A stretch of DNA of 64,000 nt. Source: Mobula hypostoma (taxonomy: Eukaryota). The DNA lies in the NCBI RefSeq assembly GCF_963921235.1, contig NC_086097.1, forward strand, positions 106,394,001-106,458,000. Direction: 5' to 3'. Both the position numbers and the translations under genes were made by a program. Shown here in pieces: positions 18,673 through 47,582 of the stretch; position 1 is the first letter of the stretch; every line of letters begins with the position of its first letter. A model generated the notes under the pieces. The model did no database searches. It was given only the letters and a program-made list of their open reading frames with translations, and was not told the DNA's origin.

Positions 18673-21600
18673 ATCAGTCTTCTGGGGCAGGTGGGACCTG
18701 TACAAGAGAGACGGGTTACACTTGAACTACAGGGGGACCGATATCCTTTCAGGGAGGTTTGTTAATGCTATTGGGGAGGCTTTAAACTAGATTTGCAGGG
18801 GGATGGGAACCAGAGTGCCAGAGCTGATAGTGTGGCTGGGGTGAAAATAAATGATGTTAAAAGTTCAAGCAAATCTGCTAATAGAAAGGTTGTGAGTGAT
18901 GGTAAAAATATTCTGAGGTGTATATATTTCAATGCTAGGAGTATTGCGGGGAAGGCAGATGAGTTGAGGGCGTGGATTGACACGTGGAATTATGACATTA
19001 TAGCAATTAGTGAAACTTGACTACAGGAGGGGCAGGACTGGCAGCTGAATATTCCAGGGTTCCGATGTTTCAGATGTGATCGAGGCAGAGGAATGAAAGG
19101 TGGGGGAGTAGCATTGCTTGTTTGGGAAAATATTACAGCAGTGCTCAGGCCGGACAGATTAGAGGGCTTGTCTACTGAGTCCTTATGGGTGGAGCTGAGA
19201 AACAGGAAAGGTATGGCCACATTAGTGGGATTGTATTACAGACCACCCAATAGTCAACGAGAATTGGAAGAGCAAATCTGCAGAGAGATAGCAGGCAACT
19301 GCAAGAAACATAAAGTTGTGGTGGTAGGGGATTTTAATTTTCCATATATTGATTGGGTCTCCCACACTGTTATGGGTCTAGATGGTTTAGAGTTTGTAAA
19401 ATGTGTTCAGGAAAGTTTTCTAAATCAATATATAGAGGGACCAACTAGAGGGAATGCAATATTGGATCTCCTGTTAGGAAACGAGTTAGGACAAGTGACA
19501 GAAGTCTGTGTAGGGGAGCACTTTGGTTCCAGTGATCATAACACCATTAGTTTCAACTTGATCATGGACAAGGATAGATCTGGTCCTAGGGTTGAGGTTC
19601 TTAACTGGAAGGCCAAATTTGAAGAAATGGGAAAGGATCTAAAAAGCGTGGATTGGGACAGGTTGTTCTCTGGCAAGGATGTGATCAGTAGGTGGGAAGC
19701 CTTCAAAGGAGAAATTTTGAGAGTGCAGAATTTGTATGTTCCTGTCAGGATTAAAGGCAAAGTGAATAGGAATAAGGAACCTTGGTTCTCAAGGGATATT
19801 GCAACTCTGATAAAGAAGAAGAGGGAGTTGTATGACATGTATAAGAAGCAGGGAGTAAATAAGGTGCTTGAGGAGTATAAGAAGTGCAAGAAAATACTTA
19901 AGAAAGAAATCAGGAGGGCTAAAGAAGACATGAGGTTGCCTTGGCAGTCAAAGTGAAGGATAATCCAAAGAGCTTTTACAGGTATATTAAGAGCAAAAGG
20001 ATTGTAAGGGATAAAATCGGTCCTCTTGAAGATCAGAGTGGTCGCCTATGTGCGGAACCAAAGGAAATGGGGGAGATCTTAAATAGGTTTTTTGCATCTG
20101 TATTTACTAAGGAAACTGGCATGAAGTCTATGGAATTAAGGGAAACAAGTAGTGAGATCATGGAAACTGTACAGATCGAAAAGGAGGAGGTCCTTGCTGT
20201 CTTGAGGAAAATTAAAGTGGATAATTTCCCGGGACCTGACAGGGTGTTCCCTCGGACCTTGAAGGAGACAAGTGTTGAAATTGCAGGGGCCCTGGCAGAA
20301 ATATTTAAAATGTTGCTGTCTACAGGTGAAGTACCGGAGGATTGGAGAGTGGCTCATGTTGATCCGTTGTTTAAAAAAGGATCGAAAAGTAATCCGGGAA
20401 ATTATAGGCCAGTAAGTTAACGTCGGTAGTAGGTAAGTTATTGGAGGGAGTACTAAGAGACAGAATCTACAAGCATTTGGATAGACAGGGACTTCTAGGG
20501 AGAGTCAACATGGCTTTGTGCGTGGTAGGTCATGTTTGACCAATCTATTGGAGTTTTTCGAGGAGGTTACCAGGAAAGTGGATGAAGTGGATATTGTCTA
20601 CATGGACTTCAGTAAGGCCCTTGACAAGGTCCCGCATGGGAGGTTAGGTAGGAAAATTCAGTTGCTAGGTATACATGGAGAGGTGGTAAATTGGATTAGA
20701 CATTGGCTCAACGGAAGAAGCCAAAGAGTGGTAGTAGAGAATTGCTTCTCCGAGTGGAGGTCTGTGACTAGTGGTGTGCCACAGGGATCAGTGCTGGGTC
20801 CATTGTTATTTGTCATCTATATCAATGATCTGGATGATAATGTGGTAAATTGGATCAGCAAATTTGCTGATGATACAAAGATTGGAGGTGTAGTAGACAG
20901 TGAGGAAGGTTTCAGAGCCTGCAGAGGGACTTGGACCAGCTGGAAAAATGGGCTGAAAAATGGCAGATGGAGTTTAATACAAACAAGTGTGAGGTATTGC
21001 ATGTTGGAAGGACAAACCAAGGTAGAACATACAGGGATAATGGTAAGGCACTGAGGAGTGCAGTGGAACAGAGGGATCTGGGAATACAGATACAAAATTC
21101 CCTAAAAGTGGCGTCACAGGTAGATAGGGTCGTAAAGAGAGCTTTTGGTACATTGGCCTTTATTAATCAAAGTATTGAGTATAAGAGCTGGAATGTTATG
21201 ATGAGGTTGTATAAGGCATTGGTGAGGCCGAATCTGGAGTATTGTGTTCAGTTTTGGCCACCAAATTACAGGAAGGATATAAATAAGGTTGAAAGAGTGC
21301 AGAGAAGGTTTACAAGGATGTTGCCAGGACTTGAGAAACTCAGTTACAGAGAAAGGTTGAATAGGTTAGGACTTTATTCCCTGAAGCGTAGAAGAATGAG
21401 GGGAGATTTGATAGAGGTATATAAAATTATGATGGATATTGATAGAGTGAATGCAAGCAGGCTTTTTCCACTGAGGGAAGGGGAGAAAAAAACCAGAGGA
21501 CATGGGTTAAGGGTGAGGGGGGAAAAGTTTAAAGGGAACATTAGGGGAGGCTTCTTCACACAGAGAGTGGTGGGAGTATGGAATGAGCTGCCAGACGAGG

Positions 21601-21777
21601 TGGTAAATGCGGGTTCTTTTTTAACATTTACGAATAAATTGGACAGATACATGGATGCGAGGTGTATGGAGGGATATGGTCCATGTGCAGGTCAGTGGGA
21701 CTAGGCAGAAAATGGTTTGGCACAGCCAAGAAGGGCCAAAAGGCCTGTTTCTGTGCTGTAGTTTCTATGGTTCTATG
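18673..21777 (+). mobile_element. CR1 LINE, 5'-truncated in ORF1, ORF2 complete but frameshifted
   Basis: ORFs 18793, 19093, 19941, 20518 and 20931 give NARS, GDFN, SDH, PQG, FADD and the C-terminal FFTQRVV; (ttctatgg) tail. Confidence 0.97.
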
Positions 21778-21889: not shown

Positions 21890-22575
21890 TATGAGTTGCA
21901 TTGTAAGTTAGTTATATTTCAGTGCAAGAAATGCTTTAGATAAGGCAAATGAGCTCAGGACATGCACCAGCAAATGGAATTATGATATCGTAGACATTCA
22001 TGAGACTTGGTTGAGGAGGGGCAGGTCTGGCAGCTCTGTATTCTGAGGTTCTGTTCTTTTAGATGTGATAGATCAGGAGGAATGTTGTTACTAGTCAGGG
22101 AAAATGTCATAGCAGTGCTCTGTCAGAACAGACTGGAAAACTCGTCTAATGAGGCATTATGGGTGGAACTGAGGAATAATAAAGGTATGACCATGTTAAT
22201 GGGGCTACATTATAGACCATCCAACAGTTCACAGGATTTAGAGGAACAAATCTGTAGAGAGATCACAGGCAGTTGCAAGAAATATAAGGCTGTTACAGTA
22301 AGTGATCTTAACTTTCCACATATTGACTGGGAATCCTGTACTGTAAAAGGACTATGTGTTATAGAATTTTGTCGAAAATGTTCAGGAAAGTTTCCTTAAT
22401 CAGTACATAGAAGTCAATACTTGATCCCCTTTTAGGGAATGAGGCAGGGCAGGTGACAGAAGTTTGTGTAGGAGAACATTTTGCATCTAGTGATCATAAT
22501 GCCACTAGTTTCAAGGTAACTATGGAAAAGGATAGGTCTAGTCCTTGGGTTGAGATTCTAAATTGCAGAAAGTCT
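21890..22575 (+). mobile_element. Old CR1 endonuclease-region fragment
   Basis: ORF 22007..22399 LWVELRNNKG, YRPSNS, SDLNFPHIDW. Confidence 0.85.
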
Positions 22576-22721
22576 CTGAAACTCTGTGACAGTCGGCTGT
22601 TGATAGCAGGGGGTATGTGTAGTACTGGCTAATAATGGTACCATCTCTCTTAGACAATAGAAAGGCTAGTGCTAGTCGATAACCCCAAAGGTGAAGAAAT
22701 ATTCTAAAGGAAGGATGAAGC

Positions 22722-25250
22722 AACTGTGGCTGACAAGGGAAGTTAAAGACTGCATAAAAGCAAAAGAGTGGGCATTTAATAATGCAAAAAATAGTGGCAA
22801 GTTTGAGATTGAGAAGCTTTTAAAAACTAACAGAAGGCAACTAACAAAGCCATAGGGAGATAAAAGATCAAACGTGAAGGCAAGCTAGACAATAATGTAA
22901 AACCAAATGTTTTTACTGATCTATAAAGAGTGAAAGAGAGGTGAGAGTGGATATTGGACTACTGGAGAGGTAGTAATGGTGGATAAAGAAATAGCAGATT
23001 AACTTAAGAAGTATTTTGTATCAGTCTTTGCTGTGGAAGTCACTAGCAGTATGCCAGAAATTTGAGAGTGTCAGCGGGCAGAAGTGAATGTAGTTGCTAT
23101 TACTAAGGAAAAGGTGCTTGGAAAGCTGAAAGGTCTGAAGGTAGATAAGTCACCTAGACCAGAGATTGTGCAGGCATTAGTAATGATCTTTCAAGAATCA
23201 CTAGATTCTGGAATGATTCTGGAGCACTGAAAAATTGCAAATATCACTCTATTCTTTAAGAAAGCAGGGAGGAAGAAGAAACCAATCGGTCTATAAGACC
23301 AATTAGCCTGACTTCAGTGGTTGGGAAGATATTGGAGTCCATTATTAAGGATGAGATTTTGGGGTACTTGGAGACACATGATAAGGTAGGTAAAAGTCAT
23401 CATGGTTTCCTTAAAGGAAACCTTCCCTGACAAATCTATTGGAATTCTTTAAGGAAATAACAGGCAGGATAAACAAAGGAGAGTCAGTGGACCTAGACAC
23501 TAGACATACAGAGTTCCAGACAGGTGGCTTTCTCACTGCTGAGTCCATTGGCTTGTTAGCAAGGGGCGTGAGCTGAAGGTAAGGAACAATGTTATTCAAC
23601 TTAGGAATATTGTGTCAACCAATCAGGATGGTGGAATTGGGAGAAGGTTCAAGAGAATGCTGGCGAAGAGGTTTTTGCAACGAACACTGGCGTGGGTCGA
23701 GGTCTTTTTGGTGGGAGCTGGGAGAAGACAGGAGGGAAGGTGGCTGAGGATGCCGTCCCTGTTGCACAAAGTGCTTTGTGCAGATGAAAGGCTTCAAGGA
23801 GGAAGGACTGATACTCCCATGGGGCAGCCTGTTAGTTCAAGATGGATTTCGAGCAACATTCAGAAGGTGTTGTGTGCTTTCACGCAGACCATGGGTCCAC
23901 CACGAGTTAAAGACAACTTTAAGATGAGCTCCTACTTATGTGCACATTTGGACTGGGTTAACTGTAATGGGCCCTTTTCATTTTTTCTTTTCTTTTTCCT
24001 AACTGTTCGTTAAAGCTGAAATTTGTAAATACAATTTCTTTATAATTGTATGTGGTGTACAACCTGTTACTTCTTCCCGACGGGTAATTGCAAGTGGGCA
24101 GCATTTACAGAGTATTCCCTCAGATCGGGGTGCAGGTGGTCAAAGCGTCCTGGCTCTCAAGTCTGGTGGGACCCAAGTCATATTGACCCTAGACGTACGG
24201 AGTACGAGACAGGTGGTTTTTTCACTGCTGAGTCCATTGACTTGTTAGTGAGGGGCTAACTAGCCACGTTTCTAGAGAAGCCCGGTAAAAAGGGGTTTCA
24301 TTTGGATTGTCAGAAGGCCTTTGACAAGGTGCCGGACATGAGATTGCTTAACAAGGTAAGAGCCCATGGTATTACAGAAAAGATACTGCATGGATAGAAG
24401 ATTGGCTGATCGGTAGAATTCACAGGTTCTGGGAATAAAGGGGGCCTATTTTGGTTGGCTGCTGGTGACTAGTCGTGTTCCACAGGGATCAGCGTTGGGA
24501 CCACTTCTTTGCACATTTTATGTCAATAATTTGTATGAAGGAATTCATGGTTTTGTGTCCAAGTTACAAGATGATACAAAGATAGTTGGAGGGACAGGTA
24601 ATGTTGAGGTAGCAGAGAGTCTTCAAAAGGACTTGGACAAAATAGGGGAATGGCAAAGAAGTGGCAAATGGAATATAGTGTTGGGAAGTGTACGGTCATA
24701 CACTTTGGTAGAAGGAATAAAGGCATAGATTATTTTCTAAATGGGCAGAAAATTCAAAAATCAGAGGTGCAAAGGGACTTGAGAGTTCTTGTGCAGGATT
24801 TCCTAAAGGTTAACTTGCAGGTTGAGTCAGTAGTAAGGTAGGCAAATGCAATGTTAGCATTGATTTCAAGAGGACCAGAATATAAGAGGAAGGACTTAAT
24901 ACTGAGGCTTTATAAGGCATTGGTCAAACTGTACTGTGAACACTTTTGGGCCCCTTAGGCCCAAAAGGATAAAGCTGGCATTTGGAGATGGACCAGAGGA
25001 GGCTCACGAGTATGATTCTGGGAATGGAAGGGTTAACATATAGGGAGCATTTGATGGCTTTGGGCCTGTCCTCACTGTCGAATGAGGAGGGGATTTCATT
25101 GAAACCTATCGAATATTGAAAGGACTAGATAGAGAGGATGTGGAGCCGTTCAGGGCCAGGAGACACAGTCTCAGAATAGAGGGGCATCCATTTAGAACAG
25201 AGATGAGGAGGCATTTCTTTAGTCAGAGGGCAATGAAATCCATAGAATTC
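22722..25250 (+). mobile_element. Degraded CR1 ORF2 (RT) interrupted by an LTR-like insert
   Basis: VPQGSALGPLL, WQMEYSVGKC; colinear with other CR1 copies on both sides of 23492-24300. Confidence 0.9.
23492..24300 (+). mobile_element. LTR-like insert with an internal ~65-bp direct repeat
   Basis: Ends ggggtttca; 23920-24070 resembles the reverse complement of 30660-30800; 23500-23566 repeats at 24189-24256. Confidence 0.55.
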
Positions 25251-25412: not shown

Positions 25413-25479
25413 GGATTAAAATACAGATGATATGATTAAACTCCTCTGAAGGCAAAAATTTATGCCATTGAGGTGATGT

Positions 25480-25570
25480 AGAAACATAGAAAATAGGTGC
25501 AGGAGTAAGCCATTCGGCCCTTCGAGCCTGCACCGCCATTCAGTATGATCATGGCTGATCATCCAACTCA
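25480..25570 (-). mobile_element. Severely 5'-truncated CR1 3' tail (91 bp)
   Basis: Matches 35202-35290; 6-bp TSD tgatgt (25474-25479, 25571-25576). Confidence 0.9.
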
Positions 25571-26771: not shown

Positions 26772-27071
26772 AAGGAACAGCATAGAACTCATCTTTAAAA
26801 AACCCACAAAAAGACCATCAAATGTGTGAGAAAAGAACAAATTACGCAAACAAATAACATATAGAACATTAAACATCGAAATGCAGAGTTTCCAAAAGTG
26901 AGTCCACAGCCATGAGTCGCCGAGCAGAGTGACTCAGTCAGTTCAGCGCTGTGTTAATTGTTGCAGGCCACAGCCGCAGACCCAGTTCTCGATCAAATCG
27001 TGCAACTAGTGAAGCACATTCACTGCTGAGGACACTAATCATCAAACCACAGTTGAAAGTGAGTCTACAGT

Positions 27072-29698
27072 TGGAGAAGGAAGTCTGAGAATCGGAGCGG
27101 GAGTGCGGAGGAAGCCATTTTGAATTTTTTCAGGTTTTTTTCATCGGCGTTCAGAGAGGCGGGACTGCGCAGGCGTGTGACGTCGGGCAGTGAAGTGCGG
27201 AGGATTTAAAAGGCCAGAAATCCTGATTCGGGTTTAACTCGGAGAAGGAAGTCTCAGAATTGGAGCCGAAGTGCGGAGGAAGCCATTTTGAATTTTTCGG
27301 TTTTTTTTCATTGGCATTCAGAGAGGCAGGACTGCGCAGCCATGTGACATCGGGCAGTGAAGTGCGGAAGATTTAAAAGGACAGAAATCCTGATTCGGGT
27401 TTAATTCAGAGAAGGAAGTCTGAGAATCGGAGCGGGAGTGCGGAGGAAGCCATTTTGAATTTTTCAGTTTTTTTCATCGGCGTTCAGAAAGGCAGGACTG
27501 CGCAGGCGTGTGACATCGAGCAGTGAAGCGTGGAAGATTTAAAAGGAACACAGCCTTATACAGCGGGCAGCGGAGTGAGCCGGGAGCAGAGTGAAGGCTT
27601 AAGGGCTTTGGCTCAACGGGCTTAGGCAGAAACGGGTGAGGTGAGGAACGTTTGGTATTCATTTTTTGTTGTTATTTGAGGAGAGGGAGAAGTATGAGTG
27701 TGAAGGCATCTTGTTGTTCTCAGTGCCGGATGTGGGAGGTCATGGAGTCTCCCAGCCTCCCGGACGTCCACATCTGCGCCAGGTGCACCAAGATGCAGCT
27801 CCTAAGAGACCGCATTAGGGAATTGGAGCTGCAGCTCGATGACTTCCATCTGGTCAGGGAAAGTGAGGAGTTGAAAGAGAGGATTTACAGGCAGGAGGTC
27901 ACACCGGGGCCACAGGAGGCAGACAAGTGGGTCACGGTTAGGAGGGGGAAGAGGAGGAGTCAGGTAATAGAGAGTACTCCAGTGGCTGTGCCCCTTGACA
28001 ATATGTACTCCTGTTTATGAGTACTGTTGGGGGGACAGCTTACCTGGGGGAAGCAACAGTGGCTGTGCCTGTTGGATTAGATACTTAGACTCTTAGGCAC
28101 AGAGTCCGGCCATATAGCTCAGAAAGGTAGGGAAAGGAAGAGGAAGAGGAGGGAAGCAGTAATAGGGGACTCAATAGTTAGGGGGTCAGATAGGTGGTTG
28201 TAACATCCTTGGTCTGAATGCTCCTGATCTCTGTCCCCTGCCTATCCTTCCTCACACACTGTCTACTAGCTTTCTCTATTTGTGAACTAACCTCCTCTCT
28301 CCTAGTCTCTTTAATTTGATTCCCACCCCACATTCTAGTTTAAAGTCACCTCAGTAGTCCTCGCAAATCTCCCTGCCAGGATATTGGTCCCCCTAGGATT
28401 CAAGTGTAACCTGTCCTTTTTGTACAGGTCACACCTGCGCCAAAAGAGGTCCCAATGATCCAAAAACTTGAATCCCTGCCCCCTGCTCCAATCCTTCAGC
28501 CACGCATTTATCCTCCACCTCATTGCATTCCTCCTCTCACTGTCGCGTAGCACAGGCAGTAATCCCGAGATTATTACCTTTGCGGTTCTTTTTCTCAATT
28601 CCCTTCCTAACTCCCTATATTCTCCTTTCAGGACCTCTCCTCTTTTCCTACCTATGTCATTGGTACCTATATGTACCACGACCTCTGGCTCCTCTCCCTC
28701 CCACTTCAGGATATCTTGATCGCAATCAGAAACATCCCGGACCCTGGCATCAGGGAGGCAAACTACCATCCGGGTCTCTGGACTGCGTCCACAGAATCGC
28801 CTATCTGACACCCTGCTATTTCCACACTAACTTCCCTCAAGGTCCTAGGAAATATCTTGTCCTGACCTGGAGACTTATCCACTTTTATATTCCTTAAAAG
28901 GGCCAGTACTTCCTCTTCTTTTATCGTCATACTTTCCATAACTACCCTTCTTGTTTCCTTTACCTTACACAATTCAATATCCTTCTTCTTAGTGAATACT
29001 GAAGAAAAGAAATTGTTCAAAATCTCCCCCATCCTTTTGGTTCCGCACATAGCCGTCCACTCTGATTCTCTAAGGGACCAATTTTATTCCTCACTATCCT
29101 TTTGCTATTAATATAACCATAGAAACCCTTTGGATTTATTTTCACCTTACTTGCTAAAGCAGCCTTGTATCTTCTTTTAGCTTTTCTAATTTCTTTCTTA
29201 AGATTCTTTTTACATTCTTTATATTCCTCTATCCCTCTGTTCTACAGCATTCTTCAATGCCCTACCATTTACCATGTTAGTTAGGTTTTTATTCTTTGGA
29301 GCGTAGAAGGTTGAGAGGGAACTTGATGGAGGTGTTTAAAATTATGAGGGGGATTTATAGAGTTGATTTGGATAGGCTTTTTCCATTGAGAATGAGGGAG
29401 ATTCAAACAAGAGGACATGAGTTCAGAGTTAAAGGGCAAAAGTTTAGGGATAACATGAGGGGGAACTTTACTCAGAGAGTGGTAGCTGTGTGGAACGAGC
29501 TTCCAGCAGAAGTGGTTGAGGCAGGTTCGATGTTGTCATTTAAAGTTAAATTGAATAGATATATGGACAGGAAAGGAATGGAGGGTTATGGGCCGATTGC
29601 AGGTCGGTGGGACTAGGTGAGAGTAAGAGTTCGGCATGGACTCGAAGAGCCGAGGTGGCCTGTTTCCGTGCTGTAATTGTTTTATAGTTATATAGTTA
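27072..29698 (+). mobile_element. CR1 LINE with intact 5' and 3' ends but internally deleted and inverted segments
   Basis: 5'UTR monomers and ORF1 start (+), ORF1 end and ORF2 pieces (-) at 28201-29275, 3' end (+) at 29277-29698; candidate TSD tacagt (27066-27071, 29699-29704). Confidence 0.88.
27073..27546 (+). promoter_or_regulatory. Three tandem ~168-bp CR1 5'UTR monomers (putative promoter array)
   Basis: Units start at 27073, 27241 and 27408; unit 1 has gccatttt (YY1-like), gaggcgggac (GC box), tgcgcaggcg (NRF1-like), tgacgtc (CRE) and tttaaaa, and units 2-3 carry decayed variants. Confidence 0.75.
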
Positions 29699-30511
29699 TA
29701 CAGTCAAAAGCTATGAGCCATGAGCCGCAGAGCTGATTGACCCTTGCAGCGTGGGACCCGAGACTCCTGCACCATCTGCGGGCAGACCTGTCAAATGCAG
29801 GACACACGTTTACTTTCTGCTCTCATCCTCATCGATTTTAACCTTGCTCAACACTTAAATAAATGTGTTGTAATGGAGCAGACCACAGGTTTGTATTCTG
29901 CCATTAGAAATCGATGCAGCGACGGCTGTAGCTACGCTGTACACCGAATCCTCCAGGAGATTGCAGAAGTGCTAATTCATTCAGTCTGCCCAAAATTTGA
30001 TTCTTAAAAGGGAAATTACAGGCTGCAATCAATCCCAGTTCAAAAGAAGTATATTTAGAACAAGAAGAAGTGTATCCAGTAGTTTTGTATGCTGTCTGCA
30101 AGATGTCAGCATTGGTCACTGGTGCCATCTTATCAGATCTCATTATCCACAGAGACACTACCTGATTCTCTTGTTGACCTTCCTCATCAAGCTCACCCTC
30201 AGGAGTTTGTAAACTTTCAAGATACATGGGGTTGACTGTTCAAAAATTCCTCAATGGTCACCAATGATGTGCAGATTGAAGGAGGCATGCCTGTAATTCA
30301 TGAACAGCTGCACATTCTGAAGAACAAACAAATGAGACACAAGTATAGTCCACACTTTGGGAAAGCCAACAAAAAGTTGTCAAATCCACATGCTCATTGA
30401 GCCGGTTCCTCATCAAGAAAGGAAAATTGGAAGAAGTTCCTTCTCCTGGGGAATAGAGTTTCACTGACCACCTAAATATTGCATGAGCAGCAAACCATGA
30501 GGTAAAGCATA

Positions 30512-31009
30512 TGAAACCTGCTGGTTTCCTTGGCTGCATAAGTCTAGCGAAGACACACTCCGGTTCTGCTAAACCTGTGAGATTGAGATGGCTCTCCCAC
30601 CCCAAACCCTGGTTTGTGTAGATGCTGGGTACTTTGCAACCCTGTTACAACTCAGTGTCAAGAAACAACAGATAACACACTGTGTACGATTAAAGGAATT
30701 ATATTTATGAATCTTAACTAAAGGGTTAGTAAAGAAAAGAAAGAAAAAACAAAAAGGGCCCATTATAATTAAACTGTCAAATGTGCACCAGTTGGAACTC
30801 AAGTCACCATCCTCAGTTGATCTCATTGCTCGGCTCCAATGGGATCATGATCTCCCCACCTGGTCGTATCCTACGACTGGTTCTCTTTTCATCTCCCGCT
30901 GAAGAAAGGACCCAGCTCACATTCCAAAGCATCCATTATTTCTAACCATAACCCAAACACTGCTTCTGTACAAGACCACTAGCAGTGAAACCTTTCCCAG
31001 GATATTACG
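30512..31009 (-). mobile_element. Degraded solo LTR-like element
   Basis: Begins tgaaacc (reverse complement of the ggtttca end at 24300); shares gggcccatta and tgtgcac blocks with 23492-24300; no TSD seen. Confidence 0.5.
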
Positions 31010-31406
31010 AACAGATAGGAGTAAGGTGCTGGTGCAGTGTAAACACTATGGCACTTGCGGAATTTAAATTCAGCTAATTTAAACAGGAGGAAAAAATTTG
31101 CTATCCTCACTCTGTCTGGCCCATATGGGACTCAAGACCAGGAGAAAGTTAATTAACTTTTAACTGCCCCCAGGCTGCCAAGTTCTCTCAAGTTGTCATG
31201 TTCAGACAGAAAAAGGGTAAAAAAAAATAGAGGCAGAGTGACAAAACGCCAATGACCTTGATATCAAATTCAGCAAAGTCCTCCACACTGACGTTTGTGG
31301 ACTGGTGTTGCAATTAGAAGAACTGTCCCATAAACCAATAAAGCAACAGTCTTGCATTGTAGTCACCAAGTCATTCTTTCAGCATCAGACTCTTCCACAA
31401 GGCTCT

Positions 31407-32411
31407 ACTTACTTTACATTTATGACTGTGTGGCTAAGCACACTTCCAACGCCATATTCAAGTTTGCTGACAACATCGCTGTTGCAGGCCAAACCAAAGG
31501 TGGTGATGATTCAGCATATTGGTGGGAGACTGAAAATCTGACCGAGTGGTGCCACAACAACTCAGTGTCAGCAAGACCAAAGAACTGATTATTGACTTCA
31601 GAAGAAAACCGGAGGTCCATGAGCCAGTCCTCATTGGAGGATCAGATGTAGAGAGGGTCAGCAACTTTAAATTCCTTGGTGTTATTATTTTGGAGGATTT
31701 CTCCTAGGTGTAGCACCTAAGTGCAATTATGAAGAAAGCACGGCAGTGCCTTTACTTCCTTAGGAGTCTGTGAAGATTCAGCATAACTTCTAAAACTTTG
31801 ACAAATTTCTCTAGATGTGTCGTGAGGAGTATATTGACTGGCTACATCACAACCTGGTATGGAAACACCAATGCACTTGAACGGAAAATCCTGCAAAAAG
31901 TAATAGATATGACCCAGTCCATCACGGGTGGAGTCCTCCCCACCACTGAGATCATCTATACGAAACGTTGTCGCAGGAACGCAGCATCTATCATCAGGGA
32001 TCCTCACCACCCTGGACATGCTCTTCTCACTGCTGCCATGAGCAAGAAGGTCCAGGAGCCTCAGCACTCACACCACCAGGTTCAGGAACAGTTACTACCC
32101 TTCAACCATCTGGGTCTTGAACCAAAGGGAATAACTTCACTCAAACTTTGCTTGCACCATCAATGAAATATTCCCATACCCAACAGACTCACTTTCAAGG
32201 ACTCTTCATCTCATATTCTTGATATTTATTGCTTCCTTTTCTATTTGCACAATTTGTTGTCTTTGGCACACACTGGTTGAATGCCCAAGCTGATGCAGTA
32301 TTTTATTGATTTTGTTATGGTTATTATTCTATAGATTTATTGAGTAAGCCCACAAGACAATGAAGCTCAGGGTTGCATATGGTGACATATATATACTTAG
32401 ATAATAAATTA
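31407..32411 (+). mobile_element. Rex1-type LINE 3' part
   Basis: YDCVAKHTSNAIFKFADN, SILTGYITTWYGN, AASIIRDPHHPGH; typical 3'UTR ending gataataaat. Confidence 0.9.
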
Positions 32412-32415
32412 ATTA

Positions 32416-33079
32416 TGTAGCCTCCTGGTAAGCCTCAGGCTCGCTCAACTCGCTTTTGTCTAGGGGGAGCAGCCTTCGGCCCCACCAAACTGGGTAATCA
32501 AGTTTGTGTGGATACTGTGTGATGTACCCCACCCCACCAAATAACAGACAATACTCCATATGTGATCTTACTGGAACTACGTATTTAATAGAGATAAAGT
32601 ATAAAAGGAAAATAAAAGGTACCAAACTTATCAAAGTTCAACCACTTCATGCACAACAGTTGGAGCTCAATTAATGGAGTCTTCTTTCCACCATTCGATC
32701 CCCTCCGACCCCCTCAACCATCGCCTGGGACCAACCATGGTGGTCGATCAGATGCTCCACACGAGTCTATCTTCGACTCCTCTCCTCGCCGAAGACCCTG
32801 GGCCTCGGACTCCCACTCGGGGACGGTCCCGCCGCCCAGGGTCACAGTATCGCGTCTCTTCTCTCTGTCCCCATCGCGCCTTCTCCCCCAAAGCCCGTGA
32901 ACAATAGCTTACAGACACACAAGAAAGAATAACATCTATCCCAATTGGTTAGCAAATGAATACAATTCTCTTTATAACCCAAACAAGCTGCTAGAGAGAG
33001 AACTTTCTCAGCAGTTAACATAACAGAGAAGCCATTTTGATTAGCCTCGGCAGTAACATAAAAGAAGAAACCCCTTACA
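32416..33079 (-). mobile_element. Solo LTR (664 bp)
   Basis: TG...CA termini (tgtag.../...ttaca) with 4-bp TSD atta at 32412-32415 and 33080-33083. Confidence 0.85.
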
Positions 33080-33567
33080 ATTACTTTAAATTACAATACC
33101 TGAGTATGTCCTGTCAGATGCATCAGAGCTGAAAGTGTAATGGTTTACAGGTGGAAGTGAATGATCTTGGAAATCTTTAACATTGACTCCAAACCAATTT
33201 AAGGTCAAAAGTGGGCTGCTGAGTTTAAATCCTGAAACTCCCTCCCCAGCAGCATTGTAAAATCAACTCTACCACAAAGACAAAGCAGCTCATGAAGATG
33301 ACTCACCAGCATCCCGACTGCATTCGGAATGGACATACCAATGATGCCCACATCATGACAATTAAATGTTACAAACAAAAGCAATGGAAATCTGGAATGT
33401 TCAACACTGGCAAACCAGCTCAAGCACATATCTCTGGCTGGATAATTGCCTGGGTTTATCACAATTTAGACAGAAGCAAAGACTATATTCTGGTAGAATC
33501 TTCAAACGTGAGCACTTAACTGCTTCCTATGACCATTTTCAGCATTCATTATACAGGAAGCTTCGTG

Positions 33568-34502
33568 CGGTTGACACGAAGCTGGGTGGCAGTGTTAGCT
33601 GTGAGGAGGATGCTAAGAGGATGCAGAGTGACTTGGATAGGTTGGGTGGGTGGGCAAATTCATGACAGATGCAATTTAATGTGGATATATGTGAAGTTAT
33701 CCACTTTGGTGGCAAAAACAGGAAAACAGATTATTATCTGAATGGTGGCCGATTAGGAAAAGGGGAGGTGCAACGAGACCTGGGTGTCATTATACACCAG
33801 TCATTGAAAGTGGGCATACAGGTACAGCAGGCGGTGAAAAAGGCGAATGGTATGCTGGCATTTATAGCGAGAGGATTCGAGTACAGGAGCAGGGAGGTAC
33901 TACTGCAGTTGTACAAGGTCTTGGTGAGACCACACCTGGAGTATTGTGTGCAGTTTTGGTCCCCTAATCTGAGGAAAGACATCCTTGCCATAGAGGGAGT
34001 ACAAAGAAGGTTCACCAGATTGATTCCTGGGATGGCAGGACTTTCATATGAAGAAAGACTGGAAAAACTGGGCTTGTACTCGTTGGAAGTTAGAAGATTG
34101 AGGGGGGATATGATTGAAACGTATAAAATCCTAAAGGGATTGGACAGGCTAGATGCAGGAAGGTTGTTTCCGATGTTGGGGAAGTCCAGAACAAGGGGTC
34201 ACAGTTTGAGGATAAAGGGGAAGCCTTTTAGGACCGAGATTAGGAAAAACTTCTTCACACAGAGAGTGGTAAATCTGTGGAATTCTCTGCCACAGGAAAC
34301 AGTTGAGGCCAGTTCATTGGCTATATTTAAGAGGGAGTTAGATATGGCCCTTGTGGCTACGGGGATCAGGGGGTATGGAGGGAAGGCTGGGGCGGGGTTC
34401 TGAGTTGGATGATCAGCCATGATCATAATAAATGGCGGTGCAGGCTCGAAGGGCCGAATGGCCTACTCCTGCACCTATTTTCTATGTTTCTATATTTCTA
34501 TG
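33568..34502 (+). mobile_element. Young CR1 3' fragment (same subfamily as 35192-39713)
   Basis: ORF 33669..34403 nearly identical to the ORF2 C-terminus; same 3'UTR and (tttctatg) tail. Confidence 0.97.
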
Positions 34503-34819
34503 AAATGTTTAAAATAGCATTGATATCCTTAGACTGGAAGTGCTCACAATCACATCATACACGAGGTTGACACCATTTCAAAGCTGCGATATAAAGCAAG
34601 GCAACAATTTTCTGAGCTAAGTGACTGGTTCTTCAATCAGGGAACCATCGCAGACCATTGTTTAGACATCTACAGAGTTCACATCTCTTTTTTTAAGCCT
34701 GGGATGAGAAAGTCTGGTCCTGAGGGTTGAGGGTCTGAAGCTTACCTATCTTTATTATTTTTAATTTATTTACATCATTTTTTCAAGTCTCAGATTCTGA
34801 CTAAATGTTTGTTTCTTGG

Positions 34820-35191
34820 GAATCAGAATCAGTTTAACATCACGGGCGTATGTCATGAAGATTATTGTTATGTGGCAGTAGCACATTGCAATACATAATC
34901 ATAGAAACTGTAAGTTACAGTAAGTGTGTATAATATATACATATATATATAATAGCGGCAGTGAGGTAGTGTTCAGGGGTTCAATATCCATTCAGAAATC
35001 TGATGGCAGAGGGGAAAAAGCTCTTCCCGAATCGTTGACTGTGTGCCTTCAGGCTCCAGTACCTCCTCCCTGATAATAGCAATGAGAAGAAGACATGTCT
35101 TGGGTGATGAGAGTCCTTAATGATGGATGCCGCCTTTTTGAGGCACTGATCCTTGAAGATGTCCTGGATACTATGGGGCCTAGTGCCCATG
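34820..35191 (-). mobile_element. Rex1-type LINE 3' part, host of the full-length CR1 (resumes 39714-39815)
   Basis: KKAASIIKDSHHPRHVFFSLL...FFPSAIRFLN; (ctgatt) tail. Confidence 0.85.
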
Positions 35192-35289
35192 ATAGAAACA
35201 TAGAAACATAGAAAATAGGTGCAGGAGTAGGCCATTCGGCCCTTCGAGCCTGCACCGCCATTTATTATGATCATGGCTGATCATCCAAC

Positions 35290-38200
35290 TCAGAACCCAG
35301 CCTTCCCTCCATACCCCCTGACCCCTGTAGCCACAAGGGCCATATCTAACTTCCTCTTAAACATAGCTAATGAACTGGCCTCAACAGTTTGCTGTGGCAG
35401 AGAATTCCACAGATTCACCACTCTCTGTGTGAAGAAGTTTTTCCTAACCTCGGTCCTAAAAGGCTTCCCCTCTATCCTCAAACTGTGACCCCTCGTTCTA
35501 GACCTCCCCAACATCGGGAACAATCTTCCCGCATCTAGCCTGTCCAATCCCTTTAGGATCTTATACGTTTCAATCAGATCCCCCCTCAATCTTCTAAATT
35601 CCAACGAGTACAAGCCCAGTTCATCCAGTCTTTCTTCATATGAAAGACCTGCCATCCCAGGAATCAATCTGGTGAACCTTCTTTGTACTCCCTCTATGGC
35701 AAAGATGTCTTTCCTCAGATTAGGGGACCAAAACTGCACACAATACTCCAGGTGTGGTCTCACCAAGGCCTTGTACAACTGCAGTAGTACCTCCCTGCTC
35801 CTGTACTCGAATCCTCTCGCTATAAATGCCAGCATACCGTTCGCCTTTTTCACCGCCTGCTGTACCTGCATGCCCACTTTCAATGACTGGTGTATAATGA
35901 CACCCAGGTCTCGTTGCACCTCCCCTTTTCCTAATCGGCCACCATTCAGATAATAATCTGTTTTCCTATTTTTGCCACCAAAGTGGATAACTTCACATTT
36001 ATCCACATTAAATTGCATCTGCCATGAGTTTGCCCACTCACCCAACCTATCCAAGTCACCCTGCATCCTCTTAGCATCCTCCTCACTGCTGACACTGCCA
36101 CCCAGCTTTGTGTCATCCGCAAACTTGGAGATGCTGCATTTAATTCCCTCATCCAAGTCATTAATATATATTGTAAACAACTGGGGTCCCAGCACTGAGC
36201 CTTGCGGTACCCCACTAGTCACCGCCTGCCATTCTGAAAAGGTCCCGTTTATTCCCACTCTTTGCTTCCTGTCTGCTAACCAATTCTCCACCCACACCAA
36301 TACCTTACCCCCAATACCGTGTGCTTTAAGTTTGCACACTAATCTCCTGTGTGGGACCTTGTCAAAAGCCTTTTGAAAATCCAAATATACCACATCCACT
36401 GGTTCTCCCCTATCCACTCTACTAGTTACATCCTCAAAAAATTCTATGAGATTCGTCAGACATGATTTTCCTTTCACAAATCCATGCTGACTTTGTCCGA
36501 TCATTTCACCGCTTTCCAAATGTGCTGTTATCACATCCTTGATAACTGACTCCAGCAGTTTCCCCACCACCGACGTTAGGCTAACCGGCCTATAATTCCC
36601 CGGTTTCTCTCTCCCTCCTTTTTTAAAAAGTGGGGTTACATTAGCCACCCTCCAATCCTCAGGAACTAGTCCAGAATCTAACGAGTTTTGAAAAATTATC
36701 ACTAATGCATCCACTATTTCTTGGGCCACTTCCTTAAGCACTCTGGGATGCAGACCATCTGGCCCTGGGGATTTATCTGCCTTCAATCCCTTCAATTTAC
36801 CTAACACCACTTCCCTACTAACATGTATTTCGCTCAGTTCCTCCATCTCACTGGACCCTCTGTCCCTTACTATTTCTGGAAGATTATTTATGTCCTCCTT
36901 AGTGAAGACAGAACCAAAGTAATTATTCAATTGGTCTGCCATGTCCTTGCTCCCCATAATCAATTCACCTGTTTCTGTTTGCAGGGGACCTACATTTGTC
37001 TTTATCAGTCTTTTCCTTTTTACATATCTATAAAAGCTTTTACAGTCCGTTTTTATGTTCTCTGCCAGTTTTCTCTCATAATCTTTTTTCCCCTTCCTAA
37101 TTAAGCCCTTTGTCCTCCTCTGCTGAACTCTGAATTTCTCCCAGTCCTCAGGTGAGCCACTTTCTCTGGCTAATTTGTATGCTACTTCTTTGGAATTGAT
37201 ACTATCCCTAATTTCTCTTGTCAGCCACGGGTGCACTACCTTCCTTGATTTATTCTTTTGCCAAACTGGGATGAACAATTGTTGTAGTTCATCCATGCAA
37301 CCTTTAAATGCCTGCCATTGCATATCCACCGTCAATCCTTGAAGTGTCATTTGCCAGTCTATCTTAGCTAATTCACGTCTCATACCTTCAAAGTTACCCC
37401 TCTTTAAGTTCAGAACCTTTGTTTCTGAATTAACTACGTCACTCTCCATGTTAATGAAGAATTCCACCATATTATGGTCACTCTTACCCAAGGGGCCTCT
37501 CACGACAAGATCGCTAATTAACCCTTCCTCATTGCTCAAAACCCAGTCCAGAATAGCCTGCTCTCTAGTCGGTTCCTCGACATGTTGGTTCAAAAAACCA
37601 TCCCGCATACATTCCAAGAAATCCTCTTCCTCAGCACCTTTACCAATTTGGTTCACCCAGTCTACATGTAGATTGAAGTCACCCATTATAACTGCTGTTC
37701 CTTTATTGCACACATTTCTAATTTCCTGTTTAATACCATCTCCGACCTCACTACTACTGTTAGGTGGCCTGTACACAACTCCCACCAGCGTCTTCTGTCC
37801 CATAGTGTTACGCAGCTCTACCCATATCGATTCCACATCTTCCCGGCTTATGTCCTTCCTTTCTATTGCGTTAATCTCTTTTTTAACCAGCAACGCCACC
37901 CCACCTCCCCTTCCTTCATGTCTATCCCTCCTGAATATTGAATATCCCTGAACGTTGAGCTCCCATCCCTGGTCACCCTGGAGCCATGTCTCTGTGATCC
38001 CAACTATATCATAATCATTAATAACAATCTGCACTTTCAATTCATCCACCTTATTACGAATGCTCCTTGCATTGACACATAAAGCCTTCAGGCGCTCTTT
38101 TACAACTCTCTTAGCCCTTTTTAATGCTTGCCCTGGATTTGTCGGCCTGCCACTTTTACTTTTCCCCTTTGTACTTTTTGCTTCTACGCTCACTTTACAC

Positions 38201-38304
38201 CCCTCTGTCTCTCTGCACTGGTTCCCATCCCTCTGTTGTGAACTAACCTCCTCACACCTAGCCGCTTTAATTTGATTCCCACCCCCCAACCATTCTAGTT
38301 TAAA
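35290..38304 (-). CDS. CR1 ORF2: APE endonuclease plus reverse transcriptase (no ATG before the endonuclease; -1 frame relative to ORF1)
   Basis: About 1000 open codons; NARS, TETW, GDFN, SDH (APE); NYRPVSL, PQGSVLGP, FADD (RT); the track start at 38289 is TTG. Confidence 0.95.
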   Translation of the reverse strand, partial: FKLEWLGGGNQIKAARCEEVSSQQRDGNQCRETEGCKVSVEAKSTKGKSKSGRPTNPGQALKRAKRVVKERLKALCVNARSIRNKVDELKVQIVINDYDIVGITETWLQGDQGWELNVQGYSIFRRDRHEGRGGGVALLVKKEINAIERKDISREDVESIWVELRNTMGQKTLVGVVYRPPNSSSEVGDGIKQEIRNVCNKGTAVIMGDFNLHVDWVNQIGKGAEEEDFLECMRDGFLNQHVEEPTREQAILDWVLSNEEGLISDLVVRGPLGKSDHNMVEFFINMESDVVNSETKVLNLKRGNFEGMRRELAKIDWQMTLQGLTVDMQWQAFKGCMDELQQLFIPVWQKNKSRKVVHPWLTREIRDSINSKEVAYKLARESGSPEDWEKFRVQQRRTKGLIRKGKKDYERKLAENIKTDCKSFYRYVKRKRLIKTNVGPLQTETGELIMGSKDMADQLNNYFGSVFTKEDINNLPEIVRDRGSSEMEELSEIHVSREVVLGKLKGLKADKSPGPDGLHPRVLKEVAQEIVDALVIIFQNSLDSGLVPEDWRVANVTPLFKKGGREKPGNYRPVSLTSVVGKLLESVIKDVITAHLESGEMIGQSQHGFVKGKSCLTNLIEFFEDVTSRVDRGEPVDVVYLDFQKAFDKVPHRRLVCKLKAHGIGGKVLVWVENWLADRKQRVGINGTFSEWQAVTSGVPQGSVLGPQLFTIYINDLDEGIKCSISKFADDTKLGGSVSSEEDAKRMQGDLDRLGEWANSWQMQFNVDKCEVIHFGGKNRKTDYYLNGGRLGKGEVQRDLGVIIHQSLKVGMQVQQAVKKANGMLAFIARGFEYRSREVLLQLYKALVRPHLEYCVQFWSPNLRKDIFAIEGVQRRFTRLIPGMAGLSYEERLDELGLYSLEFRRLRGDLIETYKILKGLDRLDAGRLFPMLGRSRTRGHSLRIEGKPFRTEVRKNFFTQRVVNLWNSLPQQTVEASSLAMFKRKLDMALVATGVRGYGGKAGF

Positions 38305-39230
38305 GTCACCTCAGTAGCCCCCGCTAATCTCCCTGCCAGGATATTGGTCCCCCTAGGATTTAAGTGTAACCCGTCCTTTTTGTACAGGTCACACCTGCGC
38401 CAAAAGAGGTCCCAATGATCCAAAAACTTGAATCCCTGCCCCCTGCTCCAATCCCTCAGCCACGCATTTATCCTCCACCTCATCGCATTCCTACTCTCAC
38501 TGTCGCATGGCACAGGCAGTAATCCCGAGATTACTACCTTTGCGGTCCTTTTTCTCAACTCCCTTCCTAGCTCCCTATATTCTTCTTTCAGGACCTCATC
38601 CCTTTTCCTACCTATGTCATTGGTACCTATATGTACCAGGACCTCTGGCTCTTCACCCTCCCACTTCAGGATATCTTGGACACGATCAGAAATATCCCGG
38701 ACCCTGGCACCAGGGAGGCAAACTACCATCCGAGTCTCTGGACTGCGTCCACAGAATCGCCTATCTGACCCCCTTACTATCGAGTCCCCTATCACAACTG
38801 CCCTCCTCTTCCTTGCCCTACCCTTCTGAGCTACAGGGCCAGACTCTGTGCCGGAGGCAGGGCCCCTGTCGCTTCCCCCGGGTAAGCTGTCCCCCCCAAC
38901 AGTACTCAAACAGGAGTACCTGTTGTTAAGGGGCACAGCCGCCGGGGTACTCCCCATCACCTGCCTTTTCCCCTTCCCCCTCCTAACCGTGACCCACTTG
39001 TCTGCCTCCCGTGGCCCCGGCGTGACCACCTGCCTTCCACTCCTCTCTATCACCTCCTCGCTCTCCCTGACCAGACGAAGGTCATCGAGCTGCAGCTCCA
39101 GTTCCGTAACGCGGTCCCTTAGGAGCTGCATCTCGATGCACTTGGCGCAGATGTAGACGTCCGGGAGACTTGGAGACTCCAGGGCCTCCCACATCCGACA
39201 TCGAGAACAGCAAACTGCCCTCACAGTCAT
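38295..39230 (-). CDS. CR1 ORF1: Cys zinc-finger and leucine zipper plus SGNH/GDSL esterase
   Basis: ATG at 39230 (MTVRAV); CSRC...CAKC, LLRDRVTELELQLDDL, VIGDS, PGAR, GTND, DGLH. Confidence 0.93.
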   Translation of the reverse strand: MTVRAVCCSRCRMWEALESPSLPDVYICAKCIEMQLLRDRVTELELQLDDLRLVRESEEVIERSGRQVVTPGPREADKWVTVRRGKGKRQVMGSTPAAVPLNNRYSCLSTVGGDSLPGGSDRGPASGTESGPVAQKGRARKRRAVVIGDSIVRGSDRRFCGRSPETRMVVCLPGARVRDISDRVQDILKWEGEEPEVLVHIGTNDIGRKRDEVLKEEYRELGRELRKRTAKVVISGLLPVPCDSESRNAMRWRINAWLRDWSRGQGFKFLDHWDLFWRRCDLYKKDGLHLNPRGTNILAGRLAGATEVTLN

Positions 39231-39393
39231 AATGCCCCTCTCCTCAAATAGCAACAGAAAATGAATGTCAAACCTTCCTCGCCTCGCCCGCTTCCGCCTA
39301 AGCCCGGTGAGCCGAAGCCCTTAAGTCTTCACTCTGCTCCCGGCTCACTCCGCCGCCCGCAAACTACGCTGCCCGCTCTCTGAGGCTTTGTTC

Positions 39394-39713
39394 CTTTTAA
39401 ATCTGCCGCGCTGCACTGCCCGACGTCACACGCCTGCGCAGTCCCGCCTCTCAGAAAGCCGTTGGAGAAAAAAAATAACGAAAATTTCAAAAATCTCTTT
39501 TTCGGCACTCCCACTCAGACTCTCAGACTCCTTCTTCGAATCAAATCCAAAGCAGGATGTCTGCCCTTTTAAATCTGCCGCGTTGCACTGCCCGACGTCA
39601 CATGCCTGCGCAGTCCCGCCTCTCAGAAAGCCGTTGGAGAAAAAAAATAACGAAAATTTCAAAAATCTCTTTTTCGGCACTCCCACTCAGACTCTCAGAC
39701 TCCTTCTTCGAAT
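39394..39713 (-). promoter_or_regulatory. Two tandem 172-bp CR1 5'UTR monomers
   Basis: Repeat period 172 (ttttaaatctgcc at 39395 and 39567); minus strand shows GC box, tgcgcaggc, tgacgtc and tttaaaa in each unit. Confidence 0.8.
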
Positions 39714-40019
39714 GGAGCTCATGATGGAGCACAACTTTCTGCAGCTTTTTTTGATCTTGTGCAGTGCCCCCCACACCGCTTCCCCCACACCAGACGGTGA
39801 TGCAGTCAGTTAGCATGTCCTTTATATTATTCTCTACCACAGAATAATTATTAACATAGTAATTATTCAGCACCTACTTCATCTGCATTCATATCAACAT
39901 TATTATTTAAGATGACTAATGTTGTTCTTGACTAACAATTTTACCTGATAAATCTACAAAAGCTCAGTTATATTGATTTTATATTGTATCTCACTTCCCT
40001 GTCATTAATACAAACACAT

Positions 40020-40450
40020 GGATGCTGTGCAGACTTGAGAACATGAACTCTAGAAAAAGGTTGAACAGGTCAGGACTTCATTACCTGGAGCATAGGAGAA
40101 TGAGGGGAGATTTGATAGAGGTATACAAAATATTAAGGGGTACAGATCAGGTAAATGCAGGCAGACTTTTTCCACTAAGGTTGAGTGAGACTAGAACTGG
40201 AGGTTAAGGGTGAAAGGTGAAATGTTTAAAGAGAGCATGAGGTGGAATTTCTTCACTCAGAGTGTGGAACGAGCAACCACAGAAGTGATGGATGTGGGTC
40301 TGATTTCAACATTTAAGAGAAATTTGCATAGATATACAGATGCGAGGGGTACGGAGGGCTATGGTCCAGGCGGAGGTTGTTGGGACTAGGCAGAATAATA
40401 GTTTGGCCGATGGATCTGTGTCTGGCTGATGTGTTCTACAACTTCTATGG
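40020..40450 (+). mobile_element. CR1 3' fragment
   Basis: LEHRRMRGDLIEVYKIL..GRLFPLR; 3'UTR like 21700-21777. Confidence 0.88.
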
Positions 40451-42085: not shown

Positions 42086-42534
42086 ATAGACTGGATGAAC
42101 TGGGCTTGTACTCGTTGGAATTTAGAAGATTGAGGGGGGATCTGATTGAAACGTATAAAATCCTAAAGGGATTGGACACGCTAGATGCAGGAAGATTATT
42201 CCCGATGTTGGGGAAGTCCAGAACGAGGGGCCACAGTTTGAGGATAAAGGGGAAGCCTTTTAGTACCGAGATTAGGAAAAACTTCTTCACACAGAGAGTG
42301 ATGAATCTGTGGAATTCTCTGCCACAGGAAACAGTTGAGGCCAGTTCATTGGCTATATTTAAGAGGGAGTTAGATATGGCCCTTGTGGCTATGGGGGTCA
42401 GGGGGTATGGCGGGAAGGCTGGGGCGGGGTTCTGAGTTGGATGATCAGCCATGATCATAATAAATGGCGGTGCAGGCTCGAAGGGCCGAATGGCCTACTC
42501 CTGCACCTATTTTCTATGTTTCTATGTTTCTATA
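42086..42534 (+). mobile_element. Young CR1 3' fragment (same subfamily as 35192-39713)
   Basis: ORF 42106..42435 and 3'UTR nearly identical to 34060-34502. Confidence 0.97.
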
Positions 42535-45555: not shown

Positions 45556-45844
45556 TTAAAACATCATTTTGTCAGGAGAATAAGATTCTCTTGAATTCTC
45601 CTGGACTCTCTCTCATGGAGGTTTGTTGTGTGAATAAAGACTTCTGTATTTCCAGTGTGACTCAGTTTTATTCACAACACACATCCTTTCAGTGCTACCA
45701 TAATTGTTAAATATTGTCAGGTGTTGTTCAAACACTAATGATTGCATATAAAACGACTTGGATGAAGTTATAATGTTCATGACTTCTACTTTCACAAGTG
45801 TTCCTTTGGCTATGTCCAGATAGTACTCTTGGTACAAGGGTTAA

Positions 45845-47520
45845 GGATATCTCAGAGCAAAACACAGAACATTCTGAAAGGGGAGAGTGAACAGTCAGAG
45901 GTCATGGCTAATATATTGGCACCAATGACATAGGCAGCAAAGAAAATTTAAAGAGCTAGATAGAACATTTTTAAAAAGAGGATTACAATCTCAGGATTAC
46001 TCACCATGCCATGTGCTAGAAAGGCAAGAGATAAGAAGAAAGTGGAGTTGGATGTGTGGAGCTAGGGCAGGGGGTACAGCTTCAGGTCTATCGATCACTG
46101 GGCTGTATTCTAGGGTGGGTAGGACCAATGCAAGAAGGAGTGGTTGTGCCTAAAATGGAGGGATACCAAAAAGGTTGCATTGAGGTTTGCAAATGCCACA
46201 GGGGAGAGTTTAAAATCAGAATATTGGGGTTGGAAACCACAGCAGCAGGTCAACAGAGAGATTAGGGAACAGTAGAAGATAGATCAAGTAAGTCTGAACT
46301 GAGGAACGGGCTGGGCCATGTTAGAAAATTCAGTGGGACAATGGCAAGAGTATCATGGGTAAAGCAGATAGACATAAAGCCTGGATTCAAGCACAGAACT
46401 ATAATGTGGCCATTACAGACACCTGGTTGAGAAAAGGGCAGGACTACGTCCTAAGGTTTTGATATTTTCAGATACAGAGGGATGATGGCTAAGCAGCAAT
46501 TACTGGAAATCCTGGAAGCAATTCAGAATGCACAGGATGCACATCCCAAAGAGGAAGAAGTACGCTAAAGGAAAGATGACACAACCATGTCTAAAAAGGG
46601 AAGTCAAAGCCAACATAAATGTCAAAGATAGAGCAAAAATTAGTGGGAAGTTAGAGGATTGGAAAGCTTTTAAAAAGAGAAGTCAAAGAATAGAAGGCAA
46701 CTAAAAAAGTCATTAGCAAGGTAAAGATGAAATATGAAAGTAAGCTAGCTAAAAATATTAAAGAGGGTACCAAAAGTTTCTTCAAATACCTAAGATATAA
46801 AAGAGAAATGATCGTGGACACTGGATTGTCGGTAAACGAAACTGGAAAGGTAGTAATGGAGACAACAAAATGGCGGACAAATTGAATAAGTATTTTGCAT
46901 CAGTTTTCACTGTGGAAGACACAAGCAATATGATGGAGGTTCCAGGTGTCGGGGGCATGAAATGTGTGAAGTTACCATAACTAGAGAGAAGTTTCTTGGG
47001 AAACTGAAAGGTATGAAGGTAGATAAGTCACCTGGGCCAAATGGTGTACATCCCAGACTGCTGACAGAGGTAGCTGAAAAGATTATGGAGGCATTAGTAG
47101 TGATCTTTCAAGAATAACTAGATTCTGGAATGGTTCCAGAAGACTGGGAAATTGCAAATATCACTCCATTCTTTAAGAAGGAAGAGAGGTAGAAGGAAGG
47201 AAACTATAGGCCAGTTAGTCTGATCTCAGTGATTGGGAAGATGTTGGAGTTGATTATTAAGGATCAGGTCTCAGGGTACCTGGAGGCACATGATAAAATA
47301 GACCGTAGTCAGCATGGTTTCCTCAAGGGAAAATCTTGCCAGAAAATCTGTTGGAATTCTTTGAAGAAATAACAAGCAGGGTAGACAAAGGAGAGTCAGT
47401 TGATGTTGTGTTCTTGGATTTTCGGAAAGGCTTTGTAAAAGTGCCATACATGAGGCTGCTTAACAAGCTAAAAGTCCGTGGTATTACAGGAAAAATTCCA
47501 ACATGGATAAGAGAGTAGGC
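45845..47520 (+). mobile_element. Old degraded CR1 (ORF1 esterase through RT, internally deleted)
   Basis: attggcaccaatgacatagg (IGTNDI), then ORF2 blocks; ORF 47336..47518 LLEFFEEITSRVDKGESVDVVFLDF. Confidence 0.85.
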
Positions 47521-47582
47521 TGGGAGCAACCAGTATTCAGTAAGTCCAAATGCTTCATGCGGGAGTGGTTTAAAGTGATCAG

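Follow-up and report, generated by a model that had tools for sequence, protein, structure and literature searches.

The closest described counterparts of the element reported here are mouse L1 families. According to the available parts of the respective reports, the 5' untranslated regions (UTRs) of L1Md A, Tf and Gf consist of CpG-rich tandem monomers of about 200 bp, which are followed by a unique tether, and two monomers are far stronger than one (PMC6454616, PMC9022269, PMC10620060). The 5' ends of mouse L1 copies are phased within the unit and daughters are shorter than their donors, as stated in the accessible text of PMC10620060. The re-expansion of the arrays is called unclear in the available portion of PMC6454616, which names cDNA priming and unequal crossing-over as proposals; neither PMC6454616 nor PMC9022269 contains the word 'TATA' in its main text. 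For the tandem promoter of Drosophila HeT-A and for partial tandems of Penelope, the accessible part of PMC2377424 describes that the upstream copy drives the downstream copy. In some ORF1-less vertebrate elements of the CR1 group, one to five subunits of 100-500 bp are located near the 5' UTR; the same source, as far as it is accessible, lists chondrichthyan L2 elements without ORF1 (PMC13343379). Direct repeats of 32 bp are reported for turtle and pufferfish CR1 5' UTRs in the available text of PMC2734521, and the A-module of Dictyostelium TRE5-A is introduced in the accessible part of PMC3159450 as a 200-bp 5' module with promoter activity. As far as that description goes, the element presented below resembles TRE5-A in having a putative 5' promoter module in a non-LTR element; clade and host differ. 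The A-module of TRE5-A occurs in tandem copies, and initiation is internal. Phased eroding monomers (mouse L1), upstream firing (HeT-A) and 5' arrays (ORF1-less CR1-group elements) are thus known already. TATA-phased monomers in CR1 were not found in a search of the openly accessible literature.

The window analysed here, a stretch of 64,000 nucleotides, contains an intact 4.5-kb LINE (element A; 39713 to 35192, minus strand) bearing a monomer array at its 5' end. Judged by its ORF1, its tail and the motifs of ORF2, and not by a reverse transcriptase tree, element A belongs to the CR1 clade and is a young ray element. The intact ORF1 (38295..39230, minus strand) codes for 311 amino acids, which comprise an N-terminal CxxC...CxxC arrangement, a coiled coil predicted by eye, and an SGNH esterase matching PF13472. 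It shares 98% identity with a Mobula hypostoma protein and has homologues in rays, skates, sharks, coelacanth, frogs, turtles, and birds; the profile of the ORF1 family matches PDB entry 4c1b (ZfL2-1 ORF1 esterase) with E=1.4e-34. Further matches of this profile at 14 metagenome and 7 genome loci (22-34% identity) were taken as unrelated SGNH proteins and set aside, and a scan of viral contigs gave 0 loci. ORF2 (35290..38310, minus strand) is likewise intact; its frame of 1006 amino acids from stop to stop contains an APE endonuclease and a reverse transcriptase (PF03372, PF14529, PF00078) and overlaps ORF1 in the -1 frame. Its C-terminal motifs are presumably of the CR1 type. In all four ORF1/ORF2 junctions examined (38295-38310, 28335-28350 and 16739-16755 on the minus strand, 18775-18790 on the plus strand), TTTAAAC followed by a stop closes ORF1, and ORF2 is open in the -1 frame with no methionine ahead of the endonuclease domain; TTTAAAC is likely a -1 ribosomal frameshift site. 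The 3' UTR and a short tandem-repeat tail occupy 35192..35289 (minus strand). The tail is built of 8-nt units (35192-35214) and not of poly(A), and the same tail is found at 34470-34502 and 42500-42533. At 33566-34501 and 42088-42533, there are 5'-truncated copies of family A, which are 94-95% identical.

Like mouse L1, the ray CR1 has tandem CpG-rich monomers and a unique tether in front of ORF1; mouse L1 belongs to the L1 clade and the starts of its Tf and Gf families are tied to a downstream YY1 site, whereas the ray element is a CR1. The tether of element A (39231..39392, minus strand), which is the unique sequence between array and ORF1, has matches in the window in elements A and B only; 128 of the 146 aligned bases of the two tethers are identical. 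In the available text of PMC13343379, the arrays of CR1-group elements belong to ORF1-less elements only and are presented, in a figure legend, with no analysis of promoter, phasing or TATA boxes, and the words 'promoter', 'monomer' and 'tandem' are absent from the main text; in contrast, the ray CR1 possesses an ORF1 with esterase.

TRF detected the array of element A at 39393-39713 (period 172, 1.9 copies, 98%) and that of element B at 27073-27547 (period 167, 2.8 copies, 89%). These periods bear out the two 172-bp and three 167-168-bp monomers noted in the preliminary description. Monomer 1 of element A (39542..39713, minus strand) is a full period of 172 bp including a 23-bp linker (39564-39542); monomer 2 (39393..39541, minus strand) comprises 149 bp, lacks the linker and has the TATA-like box at its end. 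The two are identical in 145 of 147 columns. The array of element B (27071..27546, plus strand) consists of three monomers of 167/168 bp, which share 125-128 of 141-142 columns. One period comprises a body of 149 bp, with TTTAAAAGG at its end, and the 23-bp linker, which is found between units only; in both elements the unique tether adjoins the last unit. In all five units, TGCGCAG, TGAC(G/A)TC and GATTTAAAAGG follow each other in this order, as had been claimed. The accompanying statement that the units share motifs and otherwise differ in sequence is correct for the motifs but not for the remainder, as the units of A and B are homologous throughout (78-81% according to BLAST; 104-113 of 147 columns). 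Units are more alike within a family than between families, the last unit included. In the window, the monomer is confined to the two 5' arrays, with no copy at any 3' end, and monomer patterns gave 0 matches in metagenome contigs and viral contigs. The observed/expected ratio of CpG is 1.25 and 1.19 in the arrays versus 0.31 in the window. Many differences among the B units are CpG transitions, a pattern compatible with units that were nearly identical when they were inserted and were methylated afterwards.

Downstream of its array, element B comprises the tether and the N-terminal half of ORF1 (amino acids 1-157; 27547..28194, plus strand). The rest (28195..29704, mixed strands) is a rearranged composite: an inverted ORF1 segment (amino acids 153-311; 28814-28338) overlaps the sense half by 15 nt, an inverted ORF2 piece (29229-28745) stems from a distant CR1 family, and a CR1 3' end in sense orientation (29281-29604) has another tail type, the tail ending in TACAGT (29699-29704). 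The composite may be due to template switching between different CR1 RNAs or to a later inversion. Additional CR1 pieces of several ages are located at 1-668, 18677-21700, 21900-25240, 25479-25570 and 45800-47560. An older, near-full-length CR1 (approximately 17800-13675, minus strand) has an ORF1 with esterase, and its short 5' UTR contains no monomers. It could be the monomer-less daughter of another family or an element with an internal promoter, and is neutral for the model discussed below.

One period and the start of ORF1 were compared with public contigs of four runs. The head-to-tail joint 39564→39393 is present in three of the four runs, which represent two organisms (DNA of organism A, DNA of organism B, and run X6 of organism A, which we guess to be RNA). 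This finding indicates that the tandem is a trait of the family and not a local accident. In organism C, 43 contigs depart from the reference at 39452, which is the edge of the motif block defined below. In all four runs, summed contig depth drops across the start point (for example, 175k, 120k and 35k in the last three bins of X1). Numerous ends at this point would explain such a drop, but we made no use of it, because parts cannot be ranked by the depth of contigs and the last bin borders the end of the compared sequence. The comparison returned no site of frequent molecule starts, which contigs are unable to reveal.

Both insertions had been described as beginning at an equivalent point about 30-35 nt past TTTAAAA, which proved to be accurate. 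The first base of element A is at 39713-39711, as 2 nt are shared with the target, and this start corresponds to 32-34 nt after the first T of the preceding TTTAAAA. Element B begins at 27071-27072, 34-35 nt after the first T of the box. Element A is a clean insertion: both of its flanks are collinear with a host repeat that is present as an intact copy near 63.5 kb, and no further element sequence lies beyond the 5' end of this ORF-intact copy. The interrupted repeat seems to be of the same type as the LINE frames at 61768-62556 and 7594-8538 (both plus strand), which gave one RVT_1 and one ALKBH8_N match. At the 5' junction of A (39714-39731), a short target duplication replaces about 10 host bases. 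Element B is flanked on both sides by TACAGT (27066-27071, 29699-29704); its 5' end is somewhat less secure, since the body of B is a rearranged composite. A third end was contributed by run X6: two of its contigs diverge from the element behind 39541, and 104 foreign bases follow beyond 39540 in record 24. These ends correspond to offsets 32-33 and represent at least one further insertion, with a flank unlike that of A. The chance that starts fall within 3 nt in a 170-nt unit is p=0.04 for two and p=0.0013 for three of them. The three 5' ends may point to a common start of the family, as suggested before, with the reservation that one contig of X6 breaks off within the unit, at 39424. Among the matches listed for the three other runs (DNA or unlabelled), there was no loose end at 39540-39541, although contigs whose flanks differ widely may escape such a listing.

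The arrangement of motifs places a candidate core promoter directly in front of this point. The TATA-like box TTTAAAAG, a 7/8 match to TATAWAWR, is located at 39566..39573 in monomer 1 and at 39394..39401 in monomer 2 of element A (both minus strand). The predicted +1 positions are 39542 and 39370, the latter being a CA step in the tether. The first T of TTTAAAA is at 39573 and 39401 (minus strand) in A, and at 27205, 27372 and 27538 (plus strand) in B, where +1 is predicted at 27236, 27403 and 27569. Each of three units scanned contains one TATAWAWR site with at most one mismatch. Further upstream, matches to consensus sequences mark a candidate GC box, a candidate NRF1 site and a candidate CRE: in monomer 2 of A (39422..39448, minus strand) the GC box is at 39448, the NRF1-like site at 39440 and the CRE-like site at 39428, and the same sites occur 172 bp upstream in monomer 1. 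If the first T of the box is set to -31, these sites are at -78, -70 and -58, respectively. The GC box reads GGCGGG in A1, A2 and B1, and GGCAGG in B2 and B3. A pyrimidine-purine (Py-Pu) step follows 31 nt after the box in all five units (background 0.19), the contexts in linker and tether being unrelated. It is the sole Py-Pu step at offsets 28-33; the next one is at 36, downstream of the bases which copies retain. In mouse CAGE data, according to the available text of PMC1779604, TATA boxes are located at -32 to -29 (best at -31/-30) and transcription starts at Py-Pu steps. All four motifs together were seen in none of 3000 dinucleotide shuffles and each alone in 2-6%, for motifs that were picked after the sequence had been seen. 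The genomic 5' ends are 1-4 nt downstream of the predicted +1, and none of the three retains the +1 base.

The comparison of the two families adds a second line of evidence. Between A and the majority sequence of B, 5 of 60 columns differ in the block from GC box to TATA-like box, whereas 17 of 55 do so in the 5' half once its T tract is left out (Fisher p=0.004, with the block edge chosen in knowledge of the sequence). This contrast may in part be due to fast change in the 5' half. It is weakened by the fact that the identity of the motif block (92%) is not far above that of the tether (88%) and similar to that of the esterase DNA (94%).

We consider it somewhat probable, reading the promoter role from the motifs, that each unit fires into the next one, that daughters lose one unit, and that arrays are re-duplicated. 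The array would then serve a young family of ray CR1 elements as promoter, and the monomer would be a TATA-type RNA polymerase II proximal promoter made up of GC box, NRF1-like site, CRE-like site and TTTAAAAG, with a start site 31 nt past TTTAAAAG, at the border of the next unit. Firing of the last unit would start at 39370 in the tether. From a copy of n units, RNA containing no more than n-1 of them would be made; new copies would begin at a unit border, 1-4 nt short of +1, presumably through loss at integration. One-unit copies, being without linker, would produce monomer-less daughters only; the persistence of the family would depend on copies that have at least three units, and arrays would need to be re-expanded. 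Upstream firing is favoured by the distance of the box (-31) from the Py-Pu step, by the location of the sites at -58 to -78, by the conservation of the block, and by the lack of a shared downstream core element. For this part of the preliminary description, the geometry is supportive; the phasing is common to mouse L1 and the ends are 1-4 nt past +1, hence they are not decisive. Phasing alone cannot separate an upstream from an internal promoter, because mouse L1 is also phased and loses monomers. Two further points count against upstream firing: an obligate loss of one unit per cycle would be costly, and the predicted monomer-less copies starting near 39370 are missing from the window.

These two difficulties do not arise with an internal promoter of the type known from mouse or human L1, which we regard as possible though doubtful. 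Each unit would initiate at its own first bases by means of an initiator and downstream factors, namely YY1 in B, and GC box, NRF1 and CRE sites acting from +90 to +135. One unit would be enough and extra units would add strength, the TATA-like box would be secondary or accidental, and erosion would occur only upon use of an inner unit. Such a promoter predicts the same phased 5' ends, involves no obligate unit loss and predicts no monomer-less daughters. A precedent exists in mouse Tf, where, according to the accessible text of PMC10620060, transcription starts peak 15 bp upstream of an internal YY1 site and each daughter loses 0.6-1.8 units. In agreement with an internal promoter, the YY1-like sequence GCCATTTT is found in B at 27114, 27282 and 27449, about 43 nt inside each of the three units. 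In contrast, the YY1 core (GCCAT/ATGGC) is absent from the UTR of A, so that neither family has YY1 just downstream of the start in the manner of Tf and Gf. A DPE does not fit in any of 15 placements, and no downstream core element is shared. Moreover, an internal promoter should conserve the first 50 bases of the unit, yet these are among the least conserved (14 differences in the first 45 columns), whereas the block containing TTTAAAAG is conserved best. Spacing argues in the same direction: the distance from a start to its own box is 138-140 in A versus 133-134 in B, whereas that from the box to the next start differs by 0-3. In all three internal junctions, the unit begins 32 nt after the box, and the length of the units varies by indels in the 5' half.

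It is very unlikely that the common 5' end is no start site but marks a point where reverse transcription preferentially stops or its product is joined, determined by RNA structure or microhomology, and that the array is a CpG-rich satellite-like duplication of enhancer value at most: the ends are off the Py-Pu step and show 1-2 nt of microhomology with the target, a small G+C stem is located in the linker just upstream of the start (39567-39549), and three ends are a small number, but the full-length, ORF-intact element A terminates exactly there, the motifs have a promoter-like order and canonical spacing which shuffling did not reproduce, and the block is selectively conserved across families and organisms. 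Folding of a two-unit RNA, carried out with no shuffle control, did not bring out a clear stop structure where the element starts. Rfam had 0 matches within 26800-40200, which indicates that this region contains no known structured RNA.

If upstream firing is the correct reading, arrays have to regain units. Regeneration by duplication, as proposed in the preliminary description, is supported by the homogenisation of units within each family. Family-specific changes are present in all units including the last one, which argues that the arrays were re-duplicated or homogenised after the split of A and B. The linker, 17 of whose 23 bases are kept between A and B, is found between units only; consequently, the lineage would never have passed through a one-unit state. 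Units might be regained if the cDNA end derived from unit 1 realigned on a later unit, thus adding one in-phase period, or by unequal crossing-over. In two respects the ray CR1 is unlike its mouse counterparts: the conserved core element lies upstream of the putative start, in the previous unit, where Tf and Gf have starts tied to a downstream YY1 site, and the last unit is homogenised to the same degree as the rest. The difference from HeT-A is of another kind. In HeT-A, the 3' UTR of a complete element next to the transcribed one serves as promoter and is transcribed within its own element, whereas the ray CR1 has a dedicated 5' array; its monomers are located inside one dispersed element with no 3' copy, which does not correspond to a 3'-end promoter of the HeT-A type.

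A broader conclusion, which we deem unlikely at present, is that a vertebrate LINE can do without an internal promoter by using an upstream TATA promoter that is regenerated by strand transfer between 5' repeats. If true, 5'-repeat strand transfer would serve the purpose for which LTR elements use repeats at their two ends, and the 100-500-bp 5' arrays of many CR1-group elements may have the same basis. It has long been asked how non-LTR elements retain a promoter which is expected to be lost upon reverse transcription. With a start that would be pinned by a TATA box, the young and intact CR1 of the ray would offer a sharper system for studying the loss and regain of monomers. In addition, such insertions would bring along complete TATA promoters, from which transcription could run into host DNA.
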